This document shows, one piece after another, positions 6,053-47,375 of a stretch of 64,000 nt of DNA. Source of the DNA: Octopus vulgaris (Eukaryota); NCBI GenBank assembly GCA_951406725.2, contig OX597825.1:52700001-52764000 (forward strand), read 5' to 3'. Each line of letters opens with the position of its first letter. Within the stretch, counting starts at the first letter, position 1. A program made the translations under genes and the position numbers. The notes beneath the pieces are model-generated. The model had not been told where the DNA came from, did not search any database, and saw nothing but the letters and a program-made list of their open reading frames with translations.

Positions 6053-7156
6053 GACTAGGAGGATAGCCCGGCTTTGCTCAGGATTAAGTTAGGATTATTA
6101 AGCTAATCAAGCTTTTTATTTCAAAGCAAACTAAGTAACATCAACGTCAAATTTGAGTGAAATTCGTTGAAATTGCAAACATTTAGCTGAAATTTTGCAG
6201 ACAATTTGATTGGGAAATTCCATTTGGAATCGGTTTATCGATTTTTTCCACTCACCGATTGCTTTTTTTTTTCGTTTTTGGAGAACTTCAAAGATCCCAT
6301 GAGCCCTAAGTAATGCTGGCATCAAGTTTAAACAAAATACATCAAAATTGGTAGACGTTATGGTTGAAAAGAGTCGGATCTCTCCTTTCGAAAACATGGA
6401 CAGTTTCGAAATATTGTCTACAAAATGCAAATTTGTAAACAACCAGACGTAAGTTTTGTAAGTGGAATAGAGAGGCCTACTCCCATAGAGATGTGAGAGT
6501 CAGATCTCTCCTTTCGAAAACATGAACAGTTTCGAAATATTGTCTACAAAATGCAAATTTGTAAACAACCAGACGTAAGTTTTGTAAGTGGAATAGAGAG
6601 GCCTACTCCCATAGAGATGTGAGAGTCGGATCTCTCCTTTCGAAAACATGGACAGTTTCGAAATATTGTCTACAAAATGCAAATTTGTAAACAACCAGAC
6701 GTAAGTTTTGTAAGTGGAATAGAGAGGCCTACTCCCACAGAGATGTGAGAGTCAGATCTCTCCTTTCGAAAACATGAACAGTTTCGAAACATTGTTTACA
6801 AAATAATAGCTGATCGTTTGCGAAGGAGTGTGTCTACAGTCAACACGTAGGTCTTTTGCTCCGGTAACCTCTGCTCTCTCCCTGTTCCCGCACGACCAGC
6901 TATATATCGCTATGAGTAGAGCAATGGATTCAGCTAATTTGGAAATTAGTTGTTGAAAAACGGAAAATATCGTTATATTGTGTGTATATATATATACAGG
7001 CAACACACACACTGCATACATGTGTTTTGTACGCATACATGCTCGTGTGTGTGTGTGTGACTGAAGCCATTCACACATACATACATTCATAGCAACACCT
7101 GTCTGTCTGGTTTTGCCTGTCAATCAATCAGTAAAAAGACGAAATTTTAAAAATCT

Positions 7157-12725: not shown

Positions 12726-14100
12726 ATTTCAACAATTGAGGGTAAAATTAATTAATTATTAATCAATTTCACCAAGTGTTCAGTATGCAAAGGGACCATT
12801 TAAGGCGAATTCAAATTATTACAATATATAAAAGGGCTTAGTAAAATAAATTACTTTGCCGCATACTGAACTCATTAGAAATAGCAGCTAAAAAACTTTT
12901 TTAAAAAACCATTTCTAATACTTAAAGAAAATCTCTCTCATATAGTGCTTGCTTAACTCAACTCACGAAAGTTTGGGGGTAAAGACATCAAAAAATCAAA
13001 TGCAAAGGTTATTTGAGAACGTACGTTTCAAGATTAGTCAACACGACACTTCTATCATCAGCTCAGAAACTCCTTGGTTTGGATTTGAAAACACTGAAAG
13101 TGAGAGCATACTCTTTCCGCTTCTCATCGCTTTCGAAGATCTGCTCATAACTAACAGTGCCAACAAACCCAAACATGCAAGCGAAGAATTTCTGTTCTCC
13201 CCTTTCCACCAGCGTGGGTTAAAATCAGCAAACACTCTGCTTATTTCGGTAAAATTCGAAGCATTAATTAGAGGGAGATTAATTATAATTTCAACAATTG
13301 AGGGTAAAATTAATTAATTATTAATCAATTTCACCAAGTGTTCAGTATGCAAAGGGACCATTTAAGGCGAATTCAAATTATTACAATATATAAAAGGGCT
13401 TAGTAAAATAAATTACTTTGCCGCATACTGAACTCATTAGAAATAGCAGCTAAAAAACTTTTTTAAAAAACCATTTCTAATACTTAAAGAAAATCTCTCT
13501 CATATAGTGCTTGCTTAACTCAACTCACGAAAGTTTGGGGGTAAAGACATCAAAAAATCAAATGCAAAGGTTATTTGAGAACGTACGTTTCAAGATTAGT
13601 CAACACGACACTTCTATCATCAGCTCAGAAACTCCTTGGTTTGGATTTGAAAACACTGAAAGTGAGAGCATACTCTTTCCGCTTCTCATCGCTTTCGAAG
13701 ATCTGCTCATAACTAACAGTGCCAACAAACCCAAACATGCAAGCGAAGAATTTCTGTTCTCCCCTTTCCACCAGCGTGGGTTAAAATCAGCAAACACTCT
13801 GCTTATTTCGGTAAAATCCGAAGCATTAAGTAGAGGGAGATTAATTATAATTTCAACAATTGAGGGTAAAATTAATTAATTATTAATCAATTTCACCAAG
13901 TGTTCAGTATGCAAAGGGACCATTTAAGGCGAATTCAAATTATTACAATATATAAAAGGGCTTAGTAAAATAAATTACTTTGCCGCATACTGAACTCATT
14001 AGAAATAGCAGCTAAAAAACTTTTTTAAAAAAGTTTTTTAGCTGCTATTTCTAATGAGTTCAGTATGCGGCAAAGTAATTTATTTTACTAAGCCCTTTTA

Positions 14101-19019: not shown

Positions 19020-19190
19020 GCTGGTCTATTTTGAGTTTCTTGTCATCATATTGGTTCATTTGGGATATTGGATAGTAAGAGGTCAAGTTGTTTCATGAAA
19101 ACATCTATTGCCACTACATGGAGCACCTGCAAATATTTTGGCAAGGAGTTAAATAGCAGGGGGCACTTGAATCGCAAACTATTGCAGTAG
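19020..19190 (-). mobile_element. CR1-group LINE 3' ORF2 fragment (different subfamily)
   Basis: Translation [19 protein letters not shown]...FMKQLDLLLSNIPNEP parallels GPALFNITP...FKKSLDRFLQEIPDKP in the other CR1 copies. Confidence 0.6.
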
Positions 19191-19310
19191 ATGTATATAT
19201 AGAGATATACACACATGCATATATATATATACATATAAATGCGTGTATATGTATACATATATATATATACATATGTATATGTACATACATATATATATAT
19301 ATATATATAA

Positions 19311-19345
<35 letters not shown>

Positions 19346-19348
19346 CAT

Positions 19349-20868
19349 ATATAAGATGCACCAAGTGTAAGCTATGGACACATAAGAGGTGCAGCAATGT
19401 CATAGGAAGGCTAACTAGGAAGATGGTTTTTGTATGTGGCAGATGCTCGGGAGCATTAACCTCTGAAAATCTGCAGAAAACAACTTCCGTCACTTTCCAG
19501 GGGGAAAAACTAGAAGTAGTTGATAGCTTCCGTTATCTTGGTGACCAAGTCAGTAGTGGGGGTGGGTGTGCTGAAAGTGTAACGGCTAGAGTAAGAATAG
19601 CCTGGGCAAAGTTTAGGGAGCTCTTACCTCTGTTGGTGACTAAAGGCCTCTCGCTCAGAGTAAAAGGCAGACTGTATGATGCATGTGTACGAACAGCCAT
19701 GCTACATGGCAGTGAAACATGGGCCGTGACTGCTGAGGACATGCGTAAGCTCGCGAGAAATGAAGCTAGTATGCTCCGTTGGATGTGTAATGTCAGTGTT
19801 CATAGTCGACAGAGTGTAAGTACCTTGAGAGAAAAGTTGGACCTAAGAGGAATCAGATGTTGTGTGCAAGAGAGACAATTGCGCTGGTATGGTCATGTGG
19901 TGAGAATGGATAAAGATAGGTGTGTGAAAAAGTGCCACACCCTGGCAGTTGAGGGGACCTGTGGAAGAGGTAGACCCAGAAAACCTGGGTCGAGGTGGTG
20001 AAGCACGACCTTCGAACTCTAGGTCTCACCAAGGAAATGACCAGAGACTGAGACCTATGGAAGTATGCTGTGCGTGAGAAGACCCGGCAAGACCAGTGAG
20101 AACAATCAAAATCATATCATATATCAGAAAGCAGGGGTTAAGTGACCCATCCGTTCGTGTCCGCTGTCAGCCTCGTCTGGCACCCGTGCCGGTGATACGT
20201 AAAAGCACCATTCGCTCGTGGCCATTTGCCAGCTCTGCCTGGCCCCGTGTCGGTGGCACGTAAAAGCACCATCCGTTCGTGCTCGTTGCCAGCCTCGCCT
20301 GGCCCTGTGCCGGTGACACGTAAAAGCACCATCCGTTCGTAGCCGTTTGCCAGCTCTGTCTGGCCCCGTGTCGGTGGCACGTAAAAGCACCATCCGTTCG
20401 TGGCCGTTCGTGGCCGTTTGCCAGCTCTGTCTGGCCCCGTGTCGGTGGCACGTAAAAGCACCATCCGTTCGTGTCCGTTGCCAGCCTCGGCTGGCCCCCG
20501 TGCCGGTGACACGTAAAAACACCGTCCGTTCGTGGCCGTTTGCCAGCTCTGTCTGGCCCCGTGTCGGTGGCACATAAAAGCACCATCCGTTCGTGTCCGT
20601 TGCCAGCATCGCCTGGCCCCGTGCCGGTGACACGTAAAAGCACCATCCGTTCGTGGCCGTTCGCCAGCTCTGTCTGGCACCTGTGCAGGTGGCACGTAAA
20701 AAACACCCACTACACTTGCGGAGTTGTTGGCGTTAGGAAGGGCATCCAGCCGTAGAAACACTGCCAGATCTGACTAGGCCTGACGAAGCCTTCCAGCTTC
20801 ACAGACCCCAGTTGACCCGTCCAACCCATGCTAGCATGGAAAGCGGACGCTAAACGATGATGATGATG
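19349..20868 (+). mobile_element. 5'-truncated RTE-clade LINE (RT C-terminus, 3' UTR minisatellite, (GAT)n tail)
   Basis: The ORF contains [54 protein letters not shown] and RGRPRK. It ends ccatgctagcatggaaagcggacgctaaac(gat)n. Confidence 0.92.
20145..20705 (+). repeat. GC-rich ~61-bp minisatellite (about 9 units) in the RTE 3' UTR
   Basis: Recurrent ggtggcacgtaaaagcaccatccgttcgt...ttgccagc...ctggcccc motif. Confidence 0.93.
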
Positions 20869-22659: not shown

Positions 22660-23270
22660 AACTAAGAATAACTTAGAAAGGTTTTGGCCAGTATTGGACC
22701 AGGCCATGTCTAACTTAATAGCACCACCTGGCGAAGTCTTTCAATTCAGGATTTGGGCACCGAGGCCTTTTCGAGCAGAGAGTTATTGTTTGCGGAGACA
22801 TATCCAGGTGTGGGTGGTTTGTCCAGGACTGTTTGAAGGAATTTGTCCAAAGACTTCTTGAATTTTGTGTGGTCAGTTTCTGTTTTGACGTGTCCTAGTG
22901 TAATGTTGAAGAGAGCGGGTCTAATTGAGGTGAAATAATTGTGCCGTATTGTCGTTATGTGATGCGATTTAGATTTTTGTTGTGGACAGATGGCACGTGG
23001 TCCAAGCCTTGGATGTATTTTGAAGGTGATGCCAACATCATTTGGACAGTGCTGATGGAATATTTTCCACATCATACAGATAATGTAGCATTCACGGCGT
23101 CGTTGGAGTGAATACAGTTTCAGCTTCTCTAGTCTACCCCAGTAGTCAAGGTCTGACATGCCATCTATGTTTTTTGTGATTGACCTTTGGGGAGCTTCAA
23201 TTCTCATAATATTTTGTTTTGTGTAGGGAGACCACAGTGGACACAGTGGGCAAAAGTGGAGAAGAGAAGG
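22660..23270 (-). mobile_element. CR1-group LINE 3' fragment
   Basis: ORF RIEAPQR...DYWGRLEKLKLYSLQRRRE...FKKSLDKFL, nearly identical to 31210-31985, with a tandem-repeat tail (aactaagaataacttagaa on +). Confidence 0.9.
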
Positions 23271-23489
23271 ATAATATAAATATATATAGAGAGAGAACTT
23301 ATAAAAAAAAAACAGACAAAGAAGGGTGTGTGAACAACAAATAGATGTATTAGTTTAATACTCAGGAAGTGAGAGTACCTTTCATGTTTCAAGCCTACGC
23401 TCTTCGACAGAAAGGAACACAGAAATACTTACATATATATACATACGCATATATACATACATAAATATACATATGTATATATATATATG

Positions 23490-28130: not shown

Positions 28131-30400
28131 TAACTTAGATAACTTAGATTGGTTTTTGGCATTATTGGGCCAGGCCATGACTAACTCAGTAGCACCACCT
28201 GGAAAAGTCTTTTAGTTAATTAGTTTGGGACACCATGGACCACTCAAGCAGAGAGTTGTTGGTTGAGACATATCCAGATGTAGGTAGTTTATCCAGTATT
28301 TGCTGGAAGAATTTGTCCAGGTACTGTTTGAAAGTTGTGGAATCTTTTTCTACTTTAATTTTTTTTAGGATAACATTGAAAAGAGCAGGACCATTTGCAG
28401 TGAAGAAATTGTGTTGCCATGTTCTTGTGTGATGTGATCTCAACCTTTGTAGGGGATGCATTCCATGGGTTGGGGGCTAGTCTTGGGTGAATTGTAAACA
28501 TAATACCAATATCATTTGGATAATATTGGTGGAATATTTTCCACAGGGTGCAAATAAGGTATTGCTCATGGTGGCATTGCAGAGAATAGAGTTCTAGCTG
28601 TTTAAGTCAATCCCAATAATCAAGTCCCATCATGCCATTTGTTTTTTTAGATATTGATCTTTGTGGTGCTTCGATCTTCATTATGTCTTGCTTTTTGTAG
28701 GTGGACCACAATGGGCAGCAGTATTCAAGGTGGGGCCAAGCAAATACGGAGAAGAGTAGGATGGCTTCATGATCCCTAGATTGGAAAGTTCTGAGGATCC
28801 ATGAGCACATTCTTTTTTGTTTATGTGCCCACCCCAGCTAAGGTTGCTGTCAACAGTTACACCTAAGTCTCTGATATTATCCAACAGTTCAAGTAGGTCT
28901 CCTAACAGTAGTGAATATGGCTGTTTGAGTGTGCCCTCTTTTCCAAAGTGAATGAGCTCAAATTTTTCTTTGTTTTTTTGTGCCCACTGGGTTCCTGTGC
29001 ATAGGTCTGATTGAAGCATTGCTTGATTATATACTCCCTTAATGACTTTCTGGAGATTAGAGTCATCTGCAAATATTTTTATGGTGCTATGTTCAATGGA
29101 ATCTGCAATGTCATTGATATAGACAATAAAAAGAAGTGGACCCAGCACAGTACCCTGCAGGACTTTGCAGATAACTTTTGCTGGTCTTGGTTGGATGCCA
29201 TCAATTACAACATGCTCAGTCCTGTTTGTTAGGAAATACCCAATACATTGAAGTAGCTTTCCACCAACTCCAGAATTGGATAGTTTCCTTAACAGTATAT
29301 TGTGTTCAACTCTGTCAAAGGCCTTGCTGAAATCAAGGTATATAACATCCGCATTGGAGCCCTCACTTAGTGCATCTAAGATGTCATCAAAGTAGTGGAG
29401 AAGCTGTGTTAGACAGTCCCTCCCACCACGAAAGCCATACTGGTTTCATTTTAGGAGTTGATTTAGTTCTAGGAAGGCTGTTATTCTTGATCTCAACACT
29501 CTCTCAAATACTTTGATGTTATGTGAGGATAGTGAGATTGGATGGAAGTTTACAGGGAGTGATTTATTCCCATTTTTAAAGATAGGAACAATTAACTGGG
29601 AGAGATGGTTATGAGGGATAAAACTGACATCCAGTGATTTCCTGCAGAGATTTGCAAGAGGAGCTGCAAGTTGCTGTCTGCATTCCTTCAGCACTCTAGC
29701 AGGAAACCTGCCCAGACCAACTGCTGAATCAAGTTTGATTTCTTTTATTGCTGCTAGGATATCAACGGCATCAAAAGTTATGTTGAGGATTCAAAGAAGC
29801 AAGGCTGTTTGAGTCAATTGAATCAGGGTCACTGAAAACAGAGCAGTATTGACTTTGCAGGATCTCAGCCATGACTTTGGCATCACTGTGAAGGATGCCG
29901 TTTCCATCAAGCAGTGGGCTGATAAAGGAAACTGTGGTCCCATATCTTTTTGCAAAGGAGTAAAAGACCTTAGGATTATTGATGATGTTTTTAATAGCAA
30001 GACTTCCACTCTTTGGTCGTATATGAAGGTTATCATATAGTTCGGCAGTTGTTGCTTCTTTGCTTCCAATGTTGTTAATGGTCTCGATTGGGGGTGATGT
30101 TGATGATGGTATTTTAGAGTATTGATTTTTATTCTCCTGGTGAACATATTTCTCTGTTTTGGAATCCTGCATCTACTGTTATTTGTGAGTTGTGAGGGTG
30201 TGTATTTTGAGCATATATGGGTGACTGTTAGGATAGCTATGCATTCTGATAAACAACCCCTCCTCAATAGGAAATTTGAGAACAAAACTTTTTTTTGTCT
30301 TCATGTACGCCTCTGTGTCTTTTCAAAGTATCAGTAAAATAGTAGGACTCTCTACAAGTCCCACACTAGCATATTCATCTCTATAAGTCTAATTAACAGT
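28131..30400 (-). mobile_element. Decayed CR1-group LINE, ORF2 RT region (multiple frameshifts)
   Basis: Fragments IVPIFKNGNKSLPVNFHPISLSS, LGPLLFIVYIND...[16 protein letters not shown] and NPKVFYSFAK; tail (taacttaga)2. Confidence 0.9.
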
Positions 30401-31209: not shown

Positions 31210-31985
31210 TAACTTAGAATAACTTAGAAAGGTTTTGGCCAGTATTGGACCAGGCCATGTCTAACTTAATAGCACCACCTGGCGAAGTCTTTCAATTCAG
31301 GATTTGGGCACCGAGGCCCATTCGAGCAGAGAGTTATTGTTTGCGGAGACATATCCGGGTGTGGGTGGTTTGTCCGGGACTGTTTGAAGGAATTTGTCCA
31401 AAGACTTCTTGAATTTTGTGTGGTCAGTTTCTGTTTTGACGTGTCCTGGTGTAATGTTGAAGAGAGCGGGTCCAATTGAGGTGAAATAATTGTGCTGTAT
31501 TGTCGTTATGTGATGCGATTTAGATTTTTGTTGTAGACGGATGGCACGTGGTCCAAGCCTTGGATGTATTTTGAAGGTGATGCCAACATCATTCGGACAG
31601 TGCTGATGGAATATTTTCCACATCATACAGATAATGTAGCGTTCACGGCATTGTTGGATTGAATACAGTTTCAGCTTCTCTAGTCTACCCCAGTAGTCAA
31701 GGTCTGACATGCCATCTATGTTTTTTGTGATTGTCCTTTGGGGAGCTTCAATTCTCATAATATTTTGTTTTGTGTAGGGAGACCACAGTGGACAGCAGTA
31801 TTCAAGGTGGGGTCGGGCAAAAGTGGAGAACAGAAGGATAATAGTGTGGGAATCTCTCGACTGGAAGGTTCTGAGAATCCAGGAACACATTCTGCGGGCC
31901 ATGTCAACTTTGGTGCTTATATGTGTAGCCCAGCTTATGTTGTTGTCCACTGTTACTCCCAAGTTTCTGATGTTGTTGGATGCCA
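31210..31985 (-). mobile_element. CR1-group LINE 3' fragment
   Basis: 229-aa ORF with [22 protein letters not shown] and FKKSLDKFL. The 5' truncation abuts a (TA)n tract. Confidence 0.92.
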
Positions 31986-31997
31986 TCTATCTATCTA

Positions 31998-33244: not shown

Positions 33245-35090
<1,846 letters not shown>

Positions 35091-36488
35091 TACTTTGATA
35101 CTTTGATACTTTGATACTTTGATAGGTTTCGGCCATTATTGGCCCAGGCCATGTCTAACTTAATAGCACCACCTGGTGAAGTCTTTCAAGTCAGAATTTG
35201 GGCACTATGGCCCACTCAAGTAGAGAGTTATTGTTTACAGAGACATATCCGGGTGTAGGGGGTTTATCCGGGATTTCTTGAAGGAATCTGTCCAAAGACT
35301 TCTTGAACCCTATAGGGTCAGTTTCTGTTTTAATGTGTTTTGGTGTAATGTTAAAGAGAGCGGGGCCAATTGAGGTGAAATAATTGTGCCGTATTGTTGT
35401 TATGAGATGAGAGTGCGATTTTTGTTTTGGGCGGATGGCACGGGGCCCAAGCCTTGGATGTACCTTAAAGGTGATGCCAACATCATTTGGGCAATGCTGA
35501 TGGAATATTTTCCACATCATGCAGATGATGTAGCGCTCACGACGACGTTGGAGAGAATAGAGTTTTAGCTTTTCTAGTCGACCCCAATAGTCGAGGCCTG
35601 TCATGCCATCTATCTTTTTTGTGATTGCCCTTTGAGGTGCTTCGACTTTTTTGATACCTTGTATTGTGTGGGGAGACCACAGTGGACAACAGTATTCAAG
35701 GTGGGGTCGGGCAAAAGTGGAGAAGAGAAGGATAATGGTGTGGATATCTCTCGACTGGAAAGTTCTGAGAATCCAGGAACACATTCTGCGGGCCATGTCA
35801 ACTTTGGTGTTTATATGAGTGGCCCAGCTTACGTTGTTGTCCACAATTACTCCCAAGTCTCTGATGTTGTTGGACGCCGCGAGAGTTTCACCTGAAGGAA
35901 GGGAGTATGGGAGTTTCAGGGCATCCTCTTTTCCAAAGTGGATTAGCTCAAATTTATCCTCGTTCAGCAGCATATTGTTTTTTTCTGCCCATTGGATAAC
36001 AGCCAGTAGATCTGACTGAAGGCATGTCCGGTCACTCGCCTCATTTATGACCTTCTGTAGCTTGGAGTCATCTGCAAAGATTTTTATGTTGCTGTGCTTG
36101 ATGATGTCATTAATGTCATTAATGTAAATGAGGAAAAGAAGTGGGCCCAGCACAGTGCCTTGCGGAACGCCACTACTGACTTTGGCTGGGCTTGATTTTA
36201 CCCCTTCAACTACAACATGTTGAGATCTGTCTGTCAGGAAACACTTAATCCATTTCAGTAACTTTCCAGAGACACCAATGTTGGATAGTTTTTTCAATAG
36301 GATCTTGTGATCGACCCTGTCGAAGGCCTTACTGAAATCAAGGTAGATGACATCGGTGTTGGAGCCCTCTCCCAAAGCTCTCAAAATGTCCTCAAAGTGA
36401 TGCAGGAGCTGCGTTAGGCAGTCCCTTCCATTACGGAACCCATGTTGGTTGGAGATCAGCCGATCTGTTGCTTTCCAGAAATTGGGTT
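35091..36488 (-). mobile_element. Young CR1-group LINE, 3' 1.4 kb, with an 8-bp tandem tail (ATCAAAGT)n
   Basis: Open RT frame and a 3' terminal (atactttg)4 on the + strand; short tandem tails are typical of CR1-group LINEs. Confidence 0.93.
35191..36384 (-). pseudogene. LINE ORF2 reverse transcriptase, 5'-truncated but uninterrupted for 397 aa
   Basis: [54 protein letters not shown]. Confidence 0.92.
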
Positions 36489-36489
36489 A

Positions 36490-37890
<1,401 letters not shown>

Positions 37891-40108: not shown

Positions 40109-41017
40109 CATATATACTCATATATATACATATACACACACATATATATACTCATATATATACATATACACACATATATATATATATATATTCATACATA
40201 TATATATACACATACGTATATGTACATATCATCATCATTTGGCATCCGCTTTCCATGCTAGCATGGATTGGACGGTTCAACTGGGATCTGTGATGCCAGA
40301 AGGCTGCATCAGGCCCAGTCTGATCTGGCAGTGTTTCTACGGCTGGATGCCCTTCCTAACGCCATATATACATATACATATATATATATTGCATACTTAA
40401 GCTAGTAACCTGCCTCATTCTTGATTCCGAATTCCTTTTGCCAAGTCTGTCCGTAAACGAAGTGATCCCAAGATAAGAAATCTTTGAACTTTAATTCATC
40501 CCGTATCTCTATTTATTATTATTATTTATTAATTATTATTATTCTGATCCCCCTAGTCACCACTCTGTTTACTATTTCAGCCTCGCCTCGTTTTTGCATA
40601 TTCTGTATAATTCACTAGTTATCGTTATAGATATTTAAGATCTATCTCCCTTACAGGGCTGATAGAAATTGGCTGCCGATTCTTTGCGGCGCGCCCGCTC
40701 TACCCACCACCAATACCGGATATCTCTATTTTGCTCCAACTATACCGGATGTCGTTTCTCCCACCACCATTATAGGTGTCTACATATCAATACGCTATTT
40801 CACCATGCATTACCCTCTCTCGATATATATATACGTATGCCAGACCCCTCTGGCACCTGTGCAGGTGGCACGTAAAAACACCCACTACACTCGCGGAGTG
40901 GTTGGCGTTAGGAAGGGCATCCAGCTGTAGAAACACTGCCAGACTAGACTGGAGCCTGGGGCAGTCCCGAGCTCCCCAGACCCCGGTATATATATGATGA
41001 TATGATATATGATGATG

Positions 41018-41056
<39 letters not shown>

Positions 41057-41068
41057 CACATACGTATA

Positions 41069-41116
<48 letters not shown>

Positions 41117-41339
41117 TCAATATAGGGTGGCAAAAAAAATTTTGTAGAATTCTTTTGCCACCAGCGGCCTAGTGGGAAAAAAATTAAATAGTCATAGACC
41201 ATTTTTAAGTTCAACATCAACAATCAAGGAACGGCCATAATAGGCCATTCACCCACTAGAAATAACAGCCAAAGCTTCAACCGCAAATAAAAATTAATTC
41301 CGTAAACCAGGAGAAAATTTAAAAAACATTTACCCTGTA

Positions 41340-41446
41340 ATTTCTTATACGATATACCGTTTCATCTGCTGATTAATGGTAAACTAACCTGATTAAATTA
41401 AATCAAGCCAATCTTCCAAAGGCCCTCAGATTCTTCAGTAAGAAAT
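41340..41446 (-). ncRNA. Type I hammerhead ribozyme, one per 492-bp unit
   Basis: atttctta CTGAAGA atctg...gattggcttgatt/aatcaggttagtt...cagat GAAA cggtatatcg TA taagaaat. Stem I is 8 bp, the stem II base is 5 bp with a 13-bp distal helix, and the GUA cleavage site is predicted between 41348 and 41347. Confidence 0.88.
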
Positions 41447-44400
41447 AGCCCAAGTCGGAACAGATATTTTCACGAGGCATTTCCGACCTTGCCAAGTTTA
41501 TATCTGACCTAAAATTTTCAAATCGTCGCACTCGCGCCAAATTTATCGGCAGCAAATAAATATAAGCCGTCGATTCCATTACGGAATTAACCAGAAAATT
41601 CATAATTAATCAATATAGGGTGGCAAAAAAAATTTTGTAGAATTCTTTTGCCACCAGCGGCCTAGTGGGAAAAAATTAAATAGTCATAGACCATTTTTAA
41701 GTTCAACATCAACAATCAAGGAACGGCCATAATAGGCCATTCACCCACTAGAAATAACAGCCAAAGCTTCAACCGCAAATAAAAATTAATTCCGTAAACC
41801 AGGAGAAAATTTAAAAAACATTTACCCTGTAATTTCTTATACGATATACCGTTTCATCTGCTGATTAATGGTAAACTAACCTGATTAAATTAAATCAAGC
41901 CAATCTTCCAAAGGCCCTCAGATTCTTCAGTAAGAAATAGCCCAAGTCGGAACAGATATTTTCACGAGGCATTTCCGACCTTGCCAAGTTTATATCTGAC
42001 CTAAAATTTTCAAATCGTCGCACTCGCGCCAAATTTATCGGCAGCAAATAAATATAAGCCGTCGATTCCATTACGGAATTAACCAGAAAATTCATAATTA
42101 ATCAATATAGGGTGGCAAAAAAAATTTTGTAGAATTCTTTTGCCACCAGCGGCCTAGTGGGAAAAAATTAAATAGTCATAGACCATTTTTAAGTTCAACA
42201 TCAACAATCAAGGAACGGCCATAATAGGCCATTCACCCACTAGAAATAACAGCCAAAGCTTCAACCGCAAATAAAAATTAATTCCGTAAACCAGGAGAAA
42301 ATTTAAAAAACATTTACCCTGTAATTTCTTATACGATATACCGTTTCATCTGCTGATTAATGGTAAACTAACCTGATTAAATTAAATCAAGCCAATCTTC
42401 CAAAGGCCCTCAGATTCTTCAGTAAGAAATAGCCCAAGTCGGAACAGATATTTTCACGAGGCATTTCCGACCTTGCCAAGTTTATATCTGACCTAAAATT
42501 TTCAAATCGTCGCACTCGCGCCAAATTTATCGGCAGCAAATAAATATAAGCCGTCGATTCCATTACGGAATTAACCAGAAAATTCATAATTAATCAATAT
42601 AGGGTGGCAAAAAAAATTTTGTAGAATTCTTTTGCCACCAGCGGCCTAGTGGGAAAAAATTAAATAGTCATAGACCATTTTTAAGTTCAACATCAACAAT
42701 CAAGGAACGGCCATAATAGGCCATTCACCCACTAGAAATAACAGCCAAAGCTTCAACCGCAAATAAAAATTAATTCCGTAAACCAGGAGAAAATTTAAAA
42801 AACATTTACCCTGTAATTTCTTATACGATATACCGTTTCATCTGCTGATTAATGGTAAACTAACCTGATTAAATTAAATCAAGCCAATCTTCCAAAGGCC
42901 CTCAGATTCTTCAGTAAGAAATAGCCCAAGTCGGAACAGATATTTTCACGAGGCATTTCCGACCTTGCCAAGTTTATATCTGACCTAAAATTTTCAAATC
43001 GTCGCACTCGCGCCAAATTTATCGGCAGCAAATAAATATAAGCCGTCGATTCCATTACGGAATTAACCAGAAAATTCATAATTAATCAATATAGGGTGGC
43101 AAAAAAAATTTTGTAGAATTCTTTTGCCACCAGCGGCCTAGTGGGAAAAAATTAAATAGTCATAGACCATTTTTAAGTTCAACATCAACAATCAAGGAAC
43201 GGCCATAATAGGCCATTCACCCACTAGAAATAACAGCCAAAGCTTCAACCGCAAATAAAAATTAATTCCGTAAACCAGGAGAAAATTTAAAAAACATTTA
43301 CCCTGTAATTTCTTATACGATATACCGTTTCATCTGCTGATTAATGGTAAACTAACCTGATTAAATTAAATCAAGCCAATCTTCCAAAGGCCCTCAGATT
43401 CTTCAGTAAGAAATAGCCCAAGTCGGAACAGATATTTTCACGAGGCATTTCCGACCTTGCCAAGGTTATATCTGACCTAAAATTTTCAAATCGTCGCACT
43501 CGCGCCAAATTTATCGGCAGCAAATAAATATAAGCCGTCGATTCCATTACGGAATTAACCAGAAAATTCATAATTAATCAATATAGGGTGGCAAAAAAAA
43601 TTTTGTAGAATTCTTTTGCCACCAGCGGCCTAGTGGGAAAAAATTAAATAGTCATAGACCATTTTTAAGTTCAACATCAACAATCAAGGAACGGCCATAA
43701 TAGGCCATTCACCCACTAGAAATAACAGCCAAAGCTTCAACCGCAAATAAAAATTAATTCCGTAAACCAGGAGAAAATTTAAAAAACATTTACCCTGTAA
43801 TTTCTTATACGATATACCGTTTCATCTGCTGATTAATGGTAAACTAACCTGATTAAATTAAATCAAGCCAATCTTCCAAAGGCCCTCAGATTCTTCAGTA
43901 AGAAATAGCCCAAGTCGGAACAGATATTTTCACGAGGCATTTCCGACCTTGCCAAGTTTATATCTGACCTAAAATTTTCAAATCGTCGCACTCGCGCCAA
44001 ATTTATCGGCAGCAAATAAATATAAGCCGTCGATTCCATTACGGAATTAACCAGAAAATTCATAATTAATCAATATAGGGTGGCAAAAAAAATTTTGTAG
44101 AATTCTTTTGCCACCAGCGGCCTAGTGGGAAAAAATTAAATAGTCATAGACCATTTTTAAGTTCAACATCAACAATCAAGGAACGGCCATAATAGGCCAT
44201 TCACCCACTAGAAATAACAGCCAAAGCTTCAACCGCAAATAAAAATTAATTCCGTAAACCAGGAGAAAATTTAAAAAACATTTACCCTGTAATTTCTTAT
44301 ACGATATACCGTTTCATCTGCTGATTAATGGTAAACTAACCTGATTAAATTAAATCAAGCCAATCTTCCAAAGGCCCTCAGATTCTTCAGTAAGAAATAG

Positions 44401-45867
44401 CCCAAGTCGGAACAGATATTTTCACGAGGCATTTCCGACCTTGCCAAGTTTATATCTGACCTAAAATTTTCAAATCGTCGCACTCGCGCCAAATTTATCG
44501 GCAGCAAATAAATATAAGCCGTCGATTCCATTACGGAATTAACCAGAAAATTCATAATTAATCAATATAGGGTGGCAAAAAAAATTTTGTAGAATTCTTT
44601 TGCCACCAGCGGCCTAGTGGGAAAAAATTAAATAGTCATAGACCATTTTTAAGTTCAACATCAACAATCAAGGAACGGCCATAATAGGCCATTCACCCAC
44701 TAGAAATAACAGCCAAAGCTTCAACCGCAAATAAAAATTAATTCCGTAAACCAGGAGAAAATTTAAAAAACATTTACCCTGTAATTTCTTATACGATATA
44801 CCGTTTCATCTGCTGATTAATGGTAAACTAACCTGATTAAATTAAATCAAGCCAATCTTCCAAAGGCCCTCAGATTCTTCAGTAAGAAATAGCCCAAGTC
44901 GGAACAGATATTTTCACGAGGCATTTCCGACCTTGCCAAGTTTATATCTGACCTAAAATTTTCAAATCGTCGCACTCGCGCCAAATTTATCGGCAGCAAA
45001 TAAATATAAGCCGTCGATTCCATTACGGAATTAACCAGAAAATTCATAATTAATCAATATAGGGTGGCAAAAAAAATTTTGTAGAATTCTTTTGCCACCA
45101 GCGGCCTAGTGGGAAAAAATTAAATAGTCATAGACCATTTTTAAGTTCAACATCAACAATCAAGGAACGGCCATAATAGGCCATTCACCCACTAGAAATA
45201 ACAGCCAAAGCTTCAACCGCAAATAAAAATTAATTCCGTAAACCAGGAGAAAATTTAAAAAACATTTACCCTGTAATTTCTTATACGATATACCGTTTCA
45301 TCTGCTGATTAATGGTAAACTAACCTGATTAAATTAAATCAAGCCAATCTTCCAAAGGCCCTCAGATTCTTCAGTAAGAAATAGCCCAAGTCGGAACAGA
45401 TATTTTCACGAGGCATTTCCGACCTTGCCAAGTTTATATCTGACCTAAAATTTTCAAATCGTCGCACTCGCGCCAAATTTATCGGCAGCAAATAAATATA
45501 AGCCGTCGATTCCATTACGGAATTAACCAGAAAATTCATAATTAAATAATATAGCTGTTATTTCTAGTGGGTGAATGGCCTATTATGGCCGTTCCTTGAT
45601 TGTTGATGTTGAACTTAAAAATGGTCTATGACTATTTAATTTTTTCCCACTAGGCCGCTGGTGGCAAAAGAATTCTACAAAATTTTTTTGCCACCCTATA
45701 TTGATTAATTATGAATTTTCTGGTTAATTCCGTAATGGAATCGACGGCTTATATTTATTTGCTGCCGATAAATTTGGCGCGAGTGCGACGATTTGAAAAT
45801 TTTAGGTCAGATATAACCTTGGCAAGGTCGGAAATGCCTCGTGAAAATATCTGTTCCGACTTGGGCT

Positions 45868-45974
45868 ATTTCTTACTGAAGAATCTGAGGGCCTTTGGAA
45901 GATTGGCTTGATTTAATTTAATCAGGTTAGTTTACCATTAATCAGCAGATGAAACGGTATATCGTATAAGAAAT
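45868..45974 (+). ncRNA. Type I hammerhead ribozyme in the inverted block (again at 46360-46466)
   Basis: CTGAAGA at 45876-45882, GAAA at 45951-45954, GTA at 45964-45966; same stems as the direct units. Confidence 0.88.
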
Positions 45975-46587
45975 TACAGGGTAAATGTTTTTTAAATTTT
46001 CTCCTGGTTTACGGAATTAATTTTTATTTGCGGTTGAAGCTTTGGCTGTTATTTCTAGTGGGTGAATGGCCTATTATGGCCGTTCCTTGATTGTTGATGT
46101 TGAACTTAAAAATGGTCTATGACTATTTAATTTTTTCCCACTAGGCCGCTGGTGGCAAAAGAATTCTACAAAATTTTTTTTGCCACCCTATATTGATTAA
46201 TTATGAATTTTCTGGTTAATTCCGTAATGGAATCGACGGCTTATATTTATTTGCTGCCGATAAATTTGGCGCGAGTGCGACGATTTGAAAATTTTAGGTC
46301 AGATATAACCTTGGCAAGGTCGGAAATGCCTCGTGAAAATATCTGTTCCGACTTGGGCTATTTCTTACTGAAGAATCTGAGGGCCTTTGGAAGATTGGCT
46401 TGATTTAATTTAATCAGGTTAGTTTACCATTAATCAGCAGATGAAACGGTATATCGTATAAGAAATTACAGGGTAAATGTTTTTTAAATTTTCTCCTGGT
46501 TTACGGAATTAATTTTTATTTGCGGTTGAAGCTTTGGCTGTTATTTCTAGTGGGTGAATGGCCTATTATGGCCGTTCCTTGATTGTT

Positions 46588-46622
<35 letters not shown>

Positions 46623-46656
46623 ATATATACATATACACATACACATATACATATAT

Positions 46657-47375
46657 AGGGGTTGGACAAAATAACAGAAACAGCTAAAAATTTCAAACAA
46701 ATTTATTTTAATATGGGGTAGGACCACCTTTGGCAGTAACTACAGCTTGAATTTTTGTCCATTCTTCAGCTAAAACAGTCTCCATTTCTTGTAGTGATGA
46801 TGATGGAGGATATAGACACTTTACCTGTTTTCCTAAAATGCCCCTTAAATGTTCAGTAATATTGAGATCTGGGGTCTGTGGTGGTCAGAGAAGATGTTTA
46901 GCTTCACTAGAATGTTCCTCATGTCATTCAGTAACAAATTTTTCTGTGTGAATTGGTGAATTATCATCCTGAAAGATTACGTTTTCCTCCGGAAACTATT
47001 CTGCAATTGAAGGATTAATTTGATCAGATAAAATGCTTAAATAGTCTTGACAATTAATTCTGCCATGAAGGGAAACCAATGGATCGGTGGATTTCTGAGA
47101 CATAGCTACCACCCCCAAGATCATCACAGATCCCCTTCCATGTTTAACAGTTGGAAGGAGGTAGTCTGGGTCAAATGCTTCTTTTGGCTGACTCCACACA
47201 TTTACTCGGCCAGTGGTCAGAAACGAGGTAAAAGATGACATGTCTGAGAAAATAACATTCTTCCACTGCTCTCAGGACCAATTCTGTAGGTTTTTCTCCA
47301 CTCAAAATGCTTTGCAACGTTTGTTTCTGAAAGTAGTGGTTTTCTGATTGCAACTCTCCCATGAAATCTGGCTTT
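46657..47375 (-). mobile_element. Tc1/mariner fossil, 3' half with TIR
   Basis: PTVKHGRGSVMILG, FQDDNSPIH and PPQTPDLNITEHL (WPxxSPDLNxIE-like). TIR taggggttggacaaaataacagaaacagct follows a TA tract. Confidence 0.85.

Follow-up and report, generated by a model that had tools for sequence, protein, structure and literature searches.

A hammerhead array in Octopus vulgaris as one copy of a dispersed retrozyme family with a probable Penelope-like mode of integration

Structure of the array

The genome of Octopus vulgaris carries, within a window of 64,000 nucleotides (nt) of contig OX597825.1 (assembly GCA_951406725.2, positions 52,700,001 to 52,764,000 of the forward strand), an array of 492-bp units at window positions 41112-46590 that contains eleven hammerhead ribozyme motifs. 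Rather than an oddity of a single locus, this array represents a very young copy of a repeat that is mobile and occupies hundreds of sites in the genome, and by every sequence feature that can be compared with two published descriptions the family is a non-LTR (long terminal repeat) retrozyme (PMC7229834; bioRxiv 10.64898/2026.07.22.740005). With nt 1 defined as the first base 3' of the predicted cut in RNA sense, the array consists of two arms resolved by Tandem Repeats Finder on the window. The long arm (41112-45554, ribozyme sense on the minus strand) holds 9.03 units, found as 9.0 copies at 99%, with its RNA 3' end at nt 235 and its 5' end near nt 222, while the inverted arm (45554-46590, plus strand) holds 2.11 units, found as 2.1 copies at 99%, with its RNA 5' end at nt 79 and its 3' end at nt 132. 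Both counts are as assembled, in one haploid assembly. The arms meet head-to-head at 45546-45554, where they overlap by one base immediately after two mismatches, and the whole lies between two target microsatellites found by the same program, (TA)n on the left (40987-41113) and (AT)n on the right (46589-46657). At the left end only, a stretch at 41112-41215 (minus strand, nt 133-235) lies between both inferred start sites of reverse transcription and corresponds to a "tail" as conceived for Penelope-like elements (PMC11167929, PMC8557442).

Among nine monomers taken from cut to cut, seven are identical, and the one at 43316-43807 and the inverted monomer differ by one base. The single variant unit of the long arm has C at nt 343 (window position 43465, minus strand), the same letter as in both passes of the inverted arm (45817 and 46309). 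The nine near-identical direct units and about two inverted ones of the original prediction, made from the sequence alone, are thus borne out, as are the three hairpin pairs that it named in the unit. One such monomer (41840-42331, minus strand) has 35.6% GC and no open reading frame (ORF), the longest ATG frame being 66 codons, and its circular fold reaches -135.0 kcal/mol; the z-scores of -4.5 for the sense and -5.0 for the antisense strand display no sense-strand preference and are therefore uninformative about the working strand. The element consists of unit sequence throughout, without an LTR flanking a central region; a primer binding site or polypurine tract was not the object of a separate search.

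The hammerhead motif and its sister families

The eleven motifs, all of type I, comprise nine on the minus strand, in the direct units, and two on the plus strand, in the inverted units. The first spans 41340-41446 with a predicted cut at 41347/41348 and recurs every 492 bases up to 45276-45382 (cut 45283/45284); the tenth and eleventh lie at 45868-45974 and 46360-46466, with predicted cuts at 45966/45967 and 46458/46459. Each consists of an 8-bp stem I, a CUGAAGA core, a 68-nt stem II made of 5 bp and a long G-U-rich extension, GAAA, a short stem III and a GUA site. A motif search thus recovered, in 11 of 11 cases, the intact hammerheads previously proposed, and motifs and cut sites stand as claimed, with the addition that the ribozyme of the direct units lies on the minus strand, on which the earlier account was silent. 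The stem III motif has 820 exact occurrences in the genome versus 0 matches for the reversed motif, so the hammerhead motif is not due to chance. Rfam gave 0 hits at gathering score over the whole window and, with a single unit, did not retrieve any hammerhead family at E up to 10, probably because stem II is so long.

Family-level variation within the motif, assessed over 145-161 passes per column, is confined to N7, loop III and the cut-site base. In addition, a colinear sister family with the same two ends has stems I, II and III that are different yet paired, a CCGAUGA core and a GUC site (68 exact core matches in the genome), and thus keeps the hammerhead through compensatory changes. The sister copies at loci L111-L130 (e.g., L129:1199-1900 and L125:780-1900) are older, have a unit of ~490 bp and lie in (TA)n, and their palindromic stem III could allow dimeric cleavage. 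A third, intermediate subfamily (L062:3614-5426 and L163), ~9% from the window unit, has a CUGAUGA core and a GUC site; at L062 its copy neighbours a distinct insertion of the main subfamily, both within one TA run.

A dispersed family with a fixed insertion anatomy

Searching the animal's own 2.8-Gb genome with the unit gave 194 matches in the best 40 of 1003 candidates, and the hundreds of dispersed copies led to rejection of a single-locus artefact. As the B-end junction described below has 598 forward-strand matches (reverse matches were counted several times), the family is estimated at ~1,200 insertions. The unit is also found in sequencing runs from seven studies and under two organism labels; this DNA possibly derives from one of the runs. 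The unit is covered in three runs (three studies) guessed to be RNA, as contigs only and with no silent control stretch.

In total, 74 loci were mapped, namely the window, 39 other best BLAST loci and 34 more taken from the motif list in genome order (C1 and C2), with arms below 88-90% identity excluded from arm counts. All 57 inverted insertions are head-to-head with RNA 3' ends outward, and 19 insertions have a single arm. The outer ends fall near nt 132 (site A) or at nt 233-238 (site B), the stretch between them being about 106 nt long. Pairs of ends are almost always mixed (52 A+B, no A+A, one B+B and four with one unclassified end), and 52 mixed pairs among 53 would have a chance of ~6e-15 if arms picked sites freely at even odds. 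An (AT)n tract adjoins 123 of the 126 outer A or B ends. The inner junctions vary in position, with overlaps of 1-23 bases in 40 of 57 insertions (lengths that BLAST extension inflates), five blunt joins and 12 with extra bases. Arm length ranges from 0.1 to 9.35 units and is at least three units in 16 of 126 arms, on many chromosomes; the longest arrays have 9.35, 7.43 and 6.52 units.

We infer that the head-to-head orientation is the outcome expected of two target-primed cDNAs, one per strand of a cut. The original prediction had regarded the inversion as a source of ribozyme-sense RNA from either strand; with 57 of 57 insertions arranged alike, it is instead a family-wide Penelope-like integration footprint. 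Inverted, head-to-head insertions also arise through twin priming of L1, in which two primers are used, the first on the poly(A) tail and the second at a variable internal site. The octopus family differs in having two fixed internal sites and in that each arm may be longer than one unit.

One haplotype per locus

Columns in or adjacent to homopolymer runs (n = 40) were masked. The two arms of one locus agree at 569 of 576 marker comparisons (17 marker columns, 50 loci), while shuffled arm pairs have a mean of 156 differences and a minimum of 115. In 193 of 205 cases a marker has the same letter in all passes, eight locus-private letters are fixed in both arms, and of the letters private to one arm 97 of 103 are confined to single units. 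The difference between units is 0.34% inside a locus and 1.57% from one locus to another (68 loci, omitting the six divergent or recombinant loci L062, L138, L139, L145, L153 and L163). The cut site is crossed with exact length in all 241 crossings detected, by a pattern that would miss large indels. Because the arms share a haplotype, private letters are fixed in both arms and single-unit variants stay single, each new variant passes through a single unit before it fills the whole locus, apparently faster than homogenisation at the DNA level. Rolling round a circle is the simplest cause of such one-unit passage, a uniform linear multimer being the alternative. The haplotype of the long arm occurs in 21 copies in the assembly, eight in the window array, four at C23 and at most three elsewhere, and no same-haplotype array as long as that of the window was found in the assembly.

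With regard to an RNA stage, A>G changes on the ribozyme strand make up 8 of 22 rare locus-fixed variants versus 11 of 106 single-unit variants (Fisher p 0.005, post hoc), an excess that, in these small numbers, fits editing or reverse-transcriptase (RT) error. As a hint only, given low depth and the lack of matched DNA, one of the guessed-RNA runs (X2) shows T>C on the plus strand at 11 of its 15 difference places.

Penelope-like elements and a resident candidate enzyme

Penelope-like elements form partial tandems, with an adjacent inverted 5'-truncated copy and a 30-40 bp tail that is often confined to one end, and prefer (TA)n; their tandem and inverted structure and their microsatellite bias are described as open mechanistic questions (PMC8557442). 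For the Poseidon element PAc, the tail spans the interval from one internal start site to the other, both target strands are cut and extended, and a dimer is predicted (PMC11167929). The octopus insertions resemble these Neptune, Naiad and Poseidon elements in their partial tandems, inverted 5'-truncated copy, one-end tail, two internal start sites and AT-rich or (TA)n targets, yet the unit has no ORF and carries a full three-stem rather than a minimal hammerhead. Moreover, the octopus sites end in AT or TA, which might base-pair with the target, whereas PAc initiates in the absence of homology (PMC11167929). The non-autonomous Chlamys MRC1-type elements likewise make Penelope-type, multicopy head-to-tail insertions but have a 3' end resembling that of an autonomous partner and belong to a clade without canonical hammerheads (PMC8557442).

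A young Neptune-like element resides in the same genome, with a 781-aa open frame holding an RT, CX4CxxC and, at the C terminus, GIY-YIG, and fits the Neptune/Nematis description (PMC8557442). Two arms are present at three of the 18 loci examined, and in each of the three one arm lacks a tail and the other bears one of ~31 nt, both lying in (TA)n. In its copies (L093:1744-6960 and L090-L106), an overlapping 479-aa open frame of unknown function precedes the 781-aa frame, the 3' region is long and the ~31-nt tail has a hairpin. A motif scan found no hammerhead in it, and Rfam on copy L093 gave only chance-level hits. Further type I hammerhead-like matches flanking GIY-YIG loci, at L073:632(-), L077:117(+), L091:7181(-), L098:2053(-) and L102:2940(-), may be more families or chance.

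Among 40 GIY-YIG loci, the retrozyme unit is neither an autonomous Penelope-like element, lacking an RT/GIY-YIG ORF, nor a detectable pseudo-LTR (pLTR) of one. At 17 single-arm loci, the sequence past the 5' end gave matches to common flanking repeats alone, and none to the Neptune-like ORF. As no shared sequence was detected and the best 150 of 6136 GIY-YIG candidates were scored, the Neptune-like element is a candidate rather than a proven partner. A hybrid of the two at L072 was rejected, as a 57-bp retrozyme arm in a TA run beside an older Neptune-like end was taken to reflect a shared target.

Proposed mechanism and alternatives

The array is read here, with a probability of about two in three, as one recent insertion of a dispersed non-LTR retrozyme, for which a Penelope-like RT/GIY-YIG endonuclease likely cut both strands of a (TA)n tract and, starting at two internal sites that are fixed, copied a 492-nt RNA that was likely a circle. 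The dispersal of the family, its head-to-head arms, the outer ends fixed at nt 132 and nt 233-238, the (AT)n flanks, the variable inner junction, the single haplotype per locus and the conserved hammerhead are the established part of this reading. An array would be transcribed, its hammerheads would cut the transcript into 492-nt monomers, and a host ligase would close these, a step also proposed for the retrozymes of coral, mussel and axolotl. Both target strands would then be nicked by a protein of Neptune or Naiad type, probably dimeric, and each DNA 3' end would prime a cDNA, one per site, running 0.1 to 9 turns round the template, before the two cDNAs would be joined in the middle, mostly via short overlaps. 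At the window locus, this would amount to nine turns from site B and two from site A.

The self-cleaving unit, circular RNA and rolling-circle reverse transcription of the original prediction match the published retrozyme model (PMC7229834) as well as the single-haplotype loci, the exact cut-site crossings and an array longer than any other of its haplotype. The circle model is probably right, although already published, while an uncleaved multimer is a live rival; and of "candidate template or product", the array is certainly a product but only possibly a template. A stricter version, in which a single Penelope-like dimer cleaves both (TA)n strands and launches two reverse transcriptases at the two fixed sites of one 492-nt circle, both rolling round, with about a thousand dated records in the genome, is put forward more tentatively. 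If true, the inversion-plus-tail structure seen in all Penelope-like elements would follow from a strict rule of one site per strand, and a ribozyme circle without detectable pLTR homology would be a direct Penelope-type substrate.

Several observations weigh against the proposed route. The 193 of 205 cases in which a marker is fixed in every pass are an inflated count, as marker sites were chosen as fixed in at least three loci, and the window locus itself breaks the haplotype rule, with A at nt 343 in eight of nine long-arm units but C in the remaining (fifth) one, as in the inverted arm; this C perfects a palindrome and may recur. At L148, a deletion unit is found in one arm only. Both exceptions point to two RNA molecules or later conversion. 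The deletion unit (L148:2223-2791; 239 nt, with nt 141-391 missing) lacks site B, keeps the ribozyme and site A, and occurs twice in that arm; a separate mini-family was rejected, as both copies are at L148 and unique in the genome. In addition, periodic variants within one arm at L051, L056 and L060, and a period-2 variant in both arms of L063, point in some cases to multimeric templates, two templates or later local duplication.

Other contrary points concern the RNA and the enzyme. The minimum-energy fold of the isolated motif pairs part of the core otherwise and is not the catalytic fold; in the circular monomer, the canonical hammerhead fold (-132.5 kcal/mol) lies 2.5 kcal/mol above the minimum. 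Arm 5' ends fall near the cut site in 10 of 73 cases versus 5.1 expected (p 0.03), a mild enrichment that hints at some linear templates. PAc did not require the ribozyme in vitro and used mainly unprocessed RNA as its substrate (PMC11167929), and only one of nine tested Xenopus elements cleaved (bioRxiv 10.64898/2026.07.22.740005). The ratio of A>G to T>C alone shows no difference between the two variant classes (p 0.42), and the unit-bearing runs, being contigs with guessed RNA status, are uninformative on ends, strand or level, with no pile-ups listed; no cleavage, circle or strand-specific RNA is among the observations. Finally, blastn with a dimer and an nhmmer profile of five sequences found no sequence link to any Penelope-like element among the 40 GIY-YIG loci, the sole match being the retrozyme fragment at L072, and the retrozyme tail of about 106 nt exceeds both the published 30-40 and the ~31 of the resident Neptune-like family.

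Among the alternatives, the one that survives best keeps Penelope-type twin priming but assumes as template a linear read-through multimer that stays uncleaved and stems from a homogeneous young source array, with the hammerhead acting at another step. A uniform multimer would also yield exact cut-site crossings and shared haplotypes, the long arrays that it needs exist, and the substrate preference of PAc and the misfolded isolated core speak for it. It is nevertheless unlikely, as at least 17 markers and the eight private letters would each have had to spread from a single unit throughout both arms, while variants of one unit mostly remain confined to it (97 of 103 private cases are mixed), as the one haploid assembly holds no nine-unit donor of the same haplotype, and as no pair of loci with the same ordered variants was noticed in per-locus tables read by eye, with no formal test.

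Still less probable is a short insertion whose nine units arose later through DNA-level duplication, or whose count was inflated during assembly. Near-identical units do allow reads to collapse or expand, the periodic markers of L051, L056 and L060 show that block duplication may occur, and the window has suspicious long poly-A and (TC)n runs. However, arms of at least three units recur on many chromosomes, older arrays have unit-private changes and are thus real and not homogenised, and such an event would change only the unit count of the window, not the mechanism of the family. A relic of a DNA transposon, be it a TA-targeting miniature inverted-repeat transposable element (MITE) or a Helitron-derived satellite with an incidental hammerhead, would fit the TA targets and inverted ends, which resemble those of MITEs, and the lack of a hammerhead in Rfam, but was rejected as highly improbable because the two outer ends differ in sequence and lie 106 nt from each other within the unit, arms are free to vary in length and inner junctions in position, the stems of the hammerhead covary from one sister family to the other and fixed variants are strand-biased.

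Other features of the window

The left neighbour of the array (40390-41010; also L167:1605-7796) is another young dispersed repeat, the 5' part of which forms 382-bp tandem arrays elsewhere (16.2 copies, 99%). It ends in a (GAT)n tail, has no Rfam hit at E up to 1, and may be a second array-forming retroelement. Further left, the region 34268-37759 has a 431-codon RT-like frame (35191-36486, minus strand). The bordering (AT)n, poly-A (340 and 628 bases) and (TC)281 tracts are very long and resemble base-calling or assembly artefacts. Decayed fragments of reverse transcriptases resembling those of long interspersed nuclear elements, with tentative family labels, lie at 19171-20001, 22746-23354, 28681-30172 and 31297-31986. 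Other repeats are a 126-bp × 3.5 array (6370-6804), a 61-bp × 9 array (20147-20701) and a 562-bp direct duplication (12946-13879).

Relation to known retrozymes and implications

Metazoan non-LTR retrozymes are dispersed, non-coding, short tandem units, from dimers to multimers, with GC below 50% and a type I hammerhead in each unit (PMC7229834). The octopus family shares these features, together with multiple copies, the lack of an LTR and the co-occurrence of Penelope-like elements (PMC7229834; bioRxiv 10.64898/2026.07.22.740005). Its 492-nt unit is longer than the 170-400 nt of the former source yet within the 51-972 bp range of the latter, and it stands apart through a 68-nt stem II missed by Rfam and through a fixed two-site, two-arm insertion into (TA)n, undescribed in the available text of both. 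No pLTR homology was found for the octopus unit, whereas 24 of 57 Xenopus families match Repbase elements (bioRxiv 10.64898/2026.07.22.740005). A target-site duplication, expected to exceed 4 bp when present, is unreadable inside the (AT)n flanks.

With respect to mobilisation, a 2020 review states that metazoan retrozymes have no motif revealing the mobilising element (PMC7761336). A 2026 preprint argues for Penelope-like mobilisation from co-occurrence and pLTR similarity and calls the mechanism unresolved (bioRxiv 10.64898/2026.07.22.740005), the same hypothesis is repeated in PMC11722881, and the available main text of PMC13282606 makes no mention of ribozymes. No publication on a cephalopod retrozyme or on two-arm, two-site retrozyme insertions was found in the literature covered; subscription journals and Repbase lie outside it, as do the supplements of PMC7229834, PMC13282606 and the preprint, which may hold the family or the anatomy.

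The new part is that the insertions themselves carry the Penelope footprint, place two start sites within a few bases and show a one-unit bottleneck. This footprint ties the retrozyme to Penelope-type integration by mechanism and bears on how both retrozymes and Penelope-like elements integrate. With the 492-nt RNA, the (TA)n target and an intact 781-aa candidate enzyme in one genome, the questions of what mobilises retrozymes and of how the tandem and inverted structure of Penelope-like elements arises are both testable in vitro, and such a test would reveal if arrays can be written by an endonuclease-RT from a circular RNA template.

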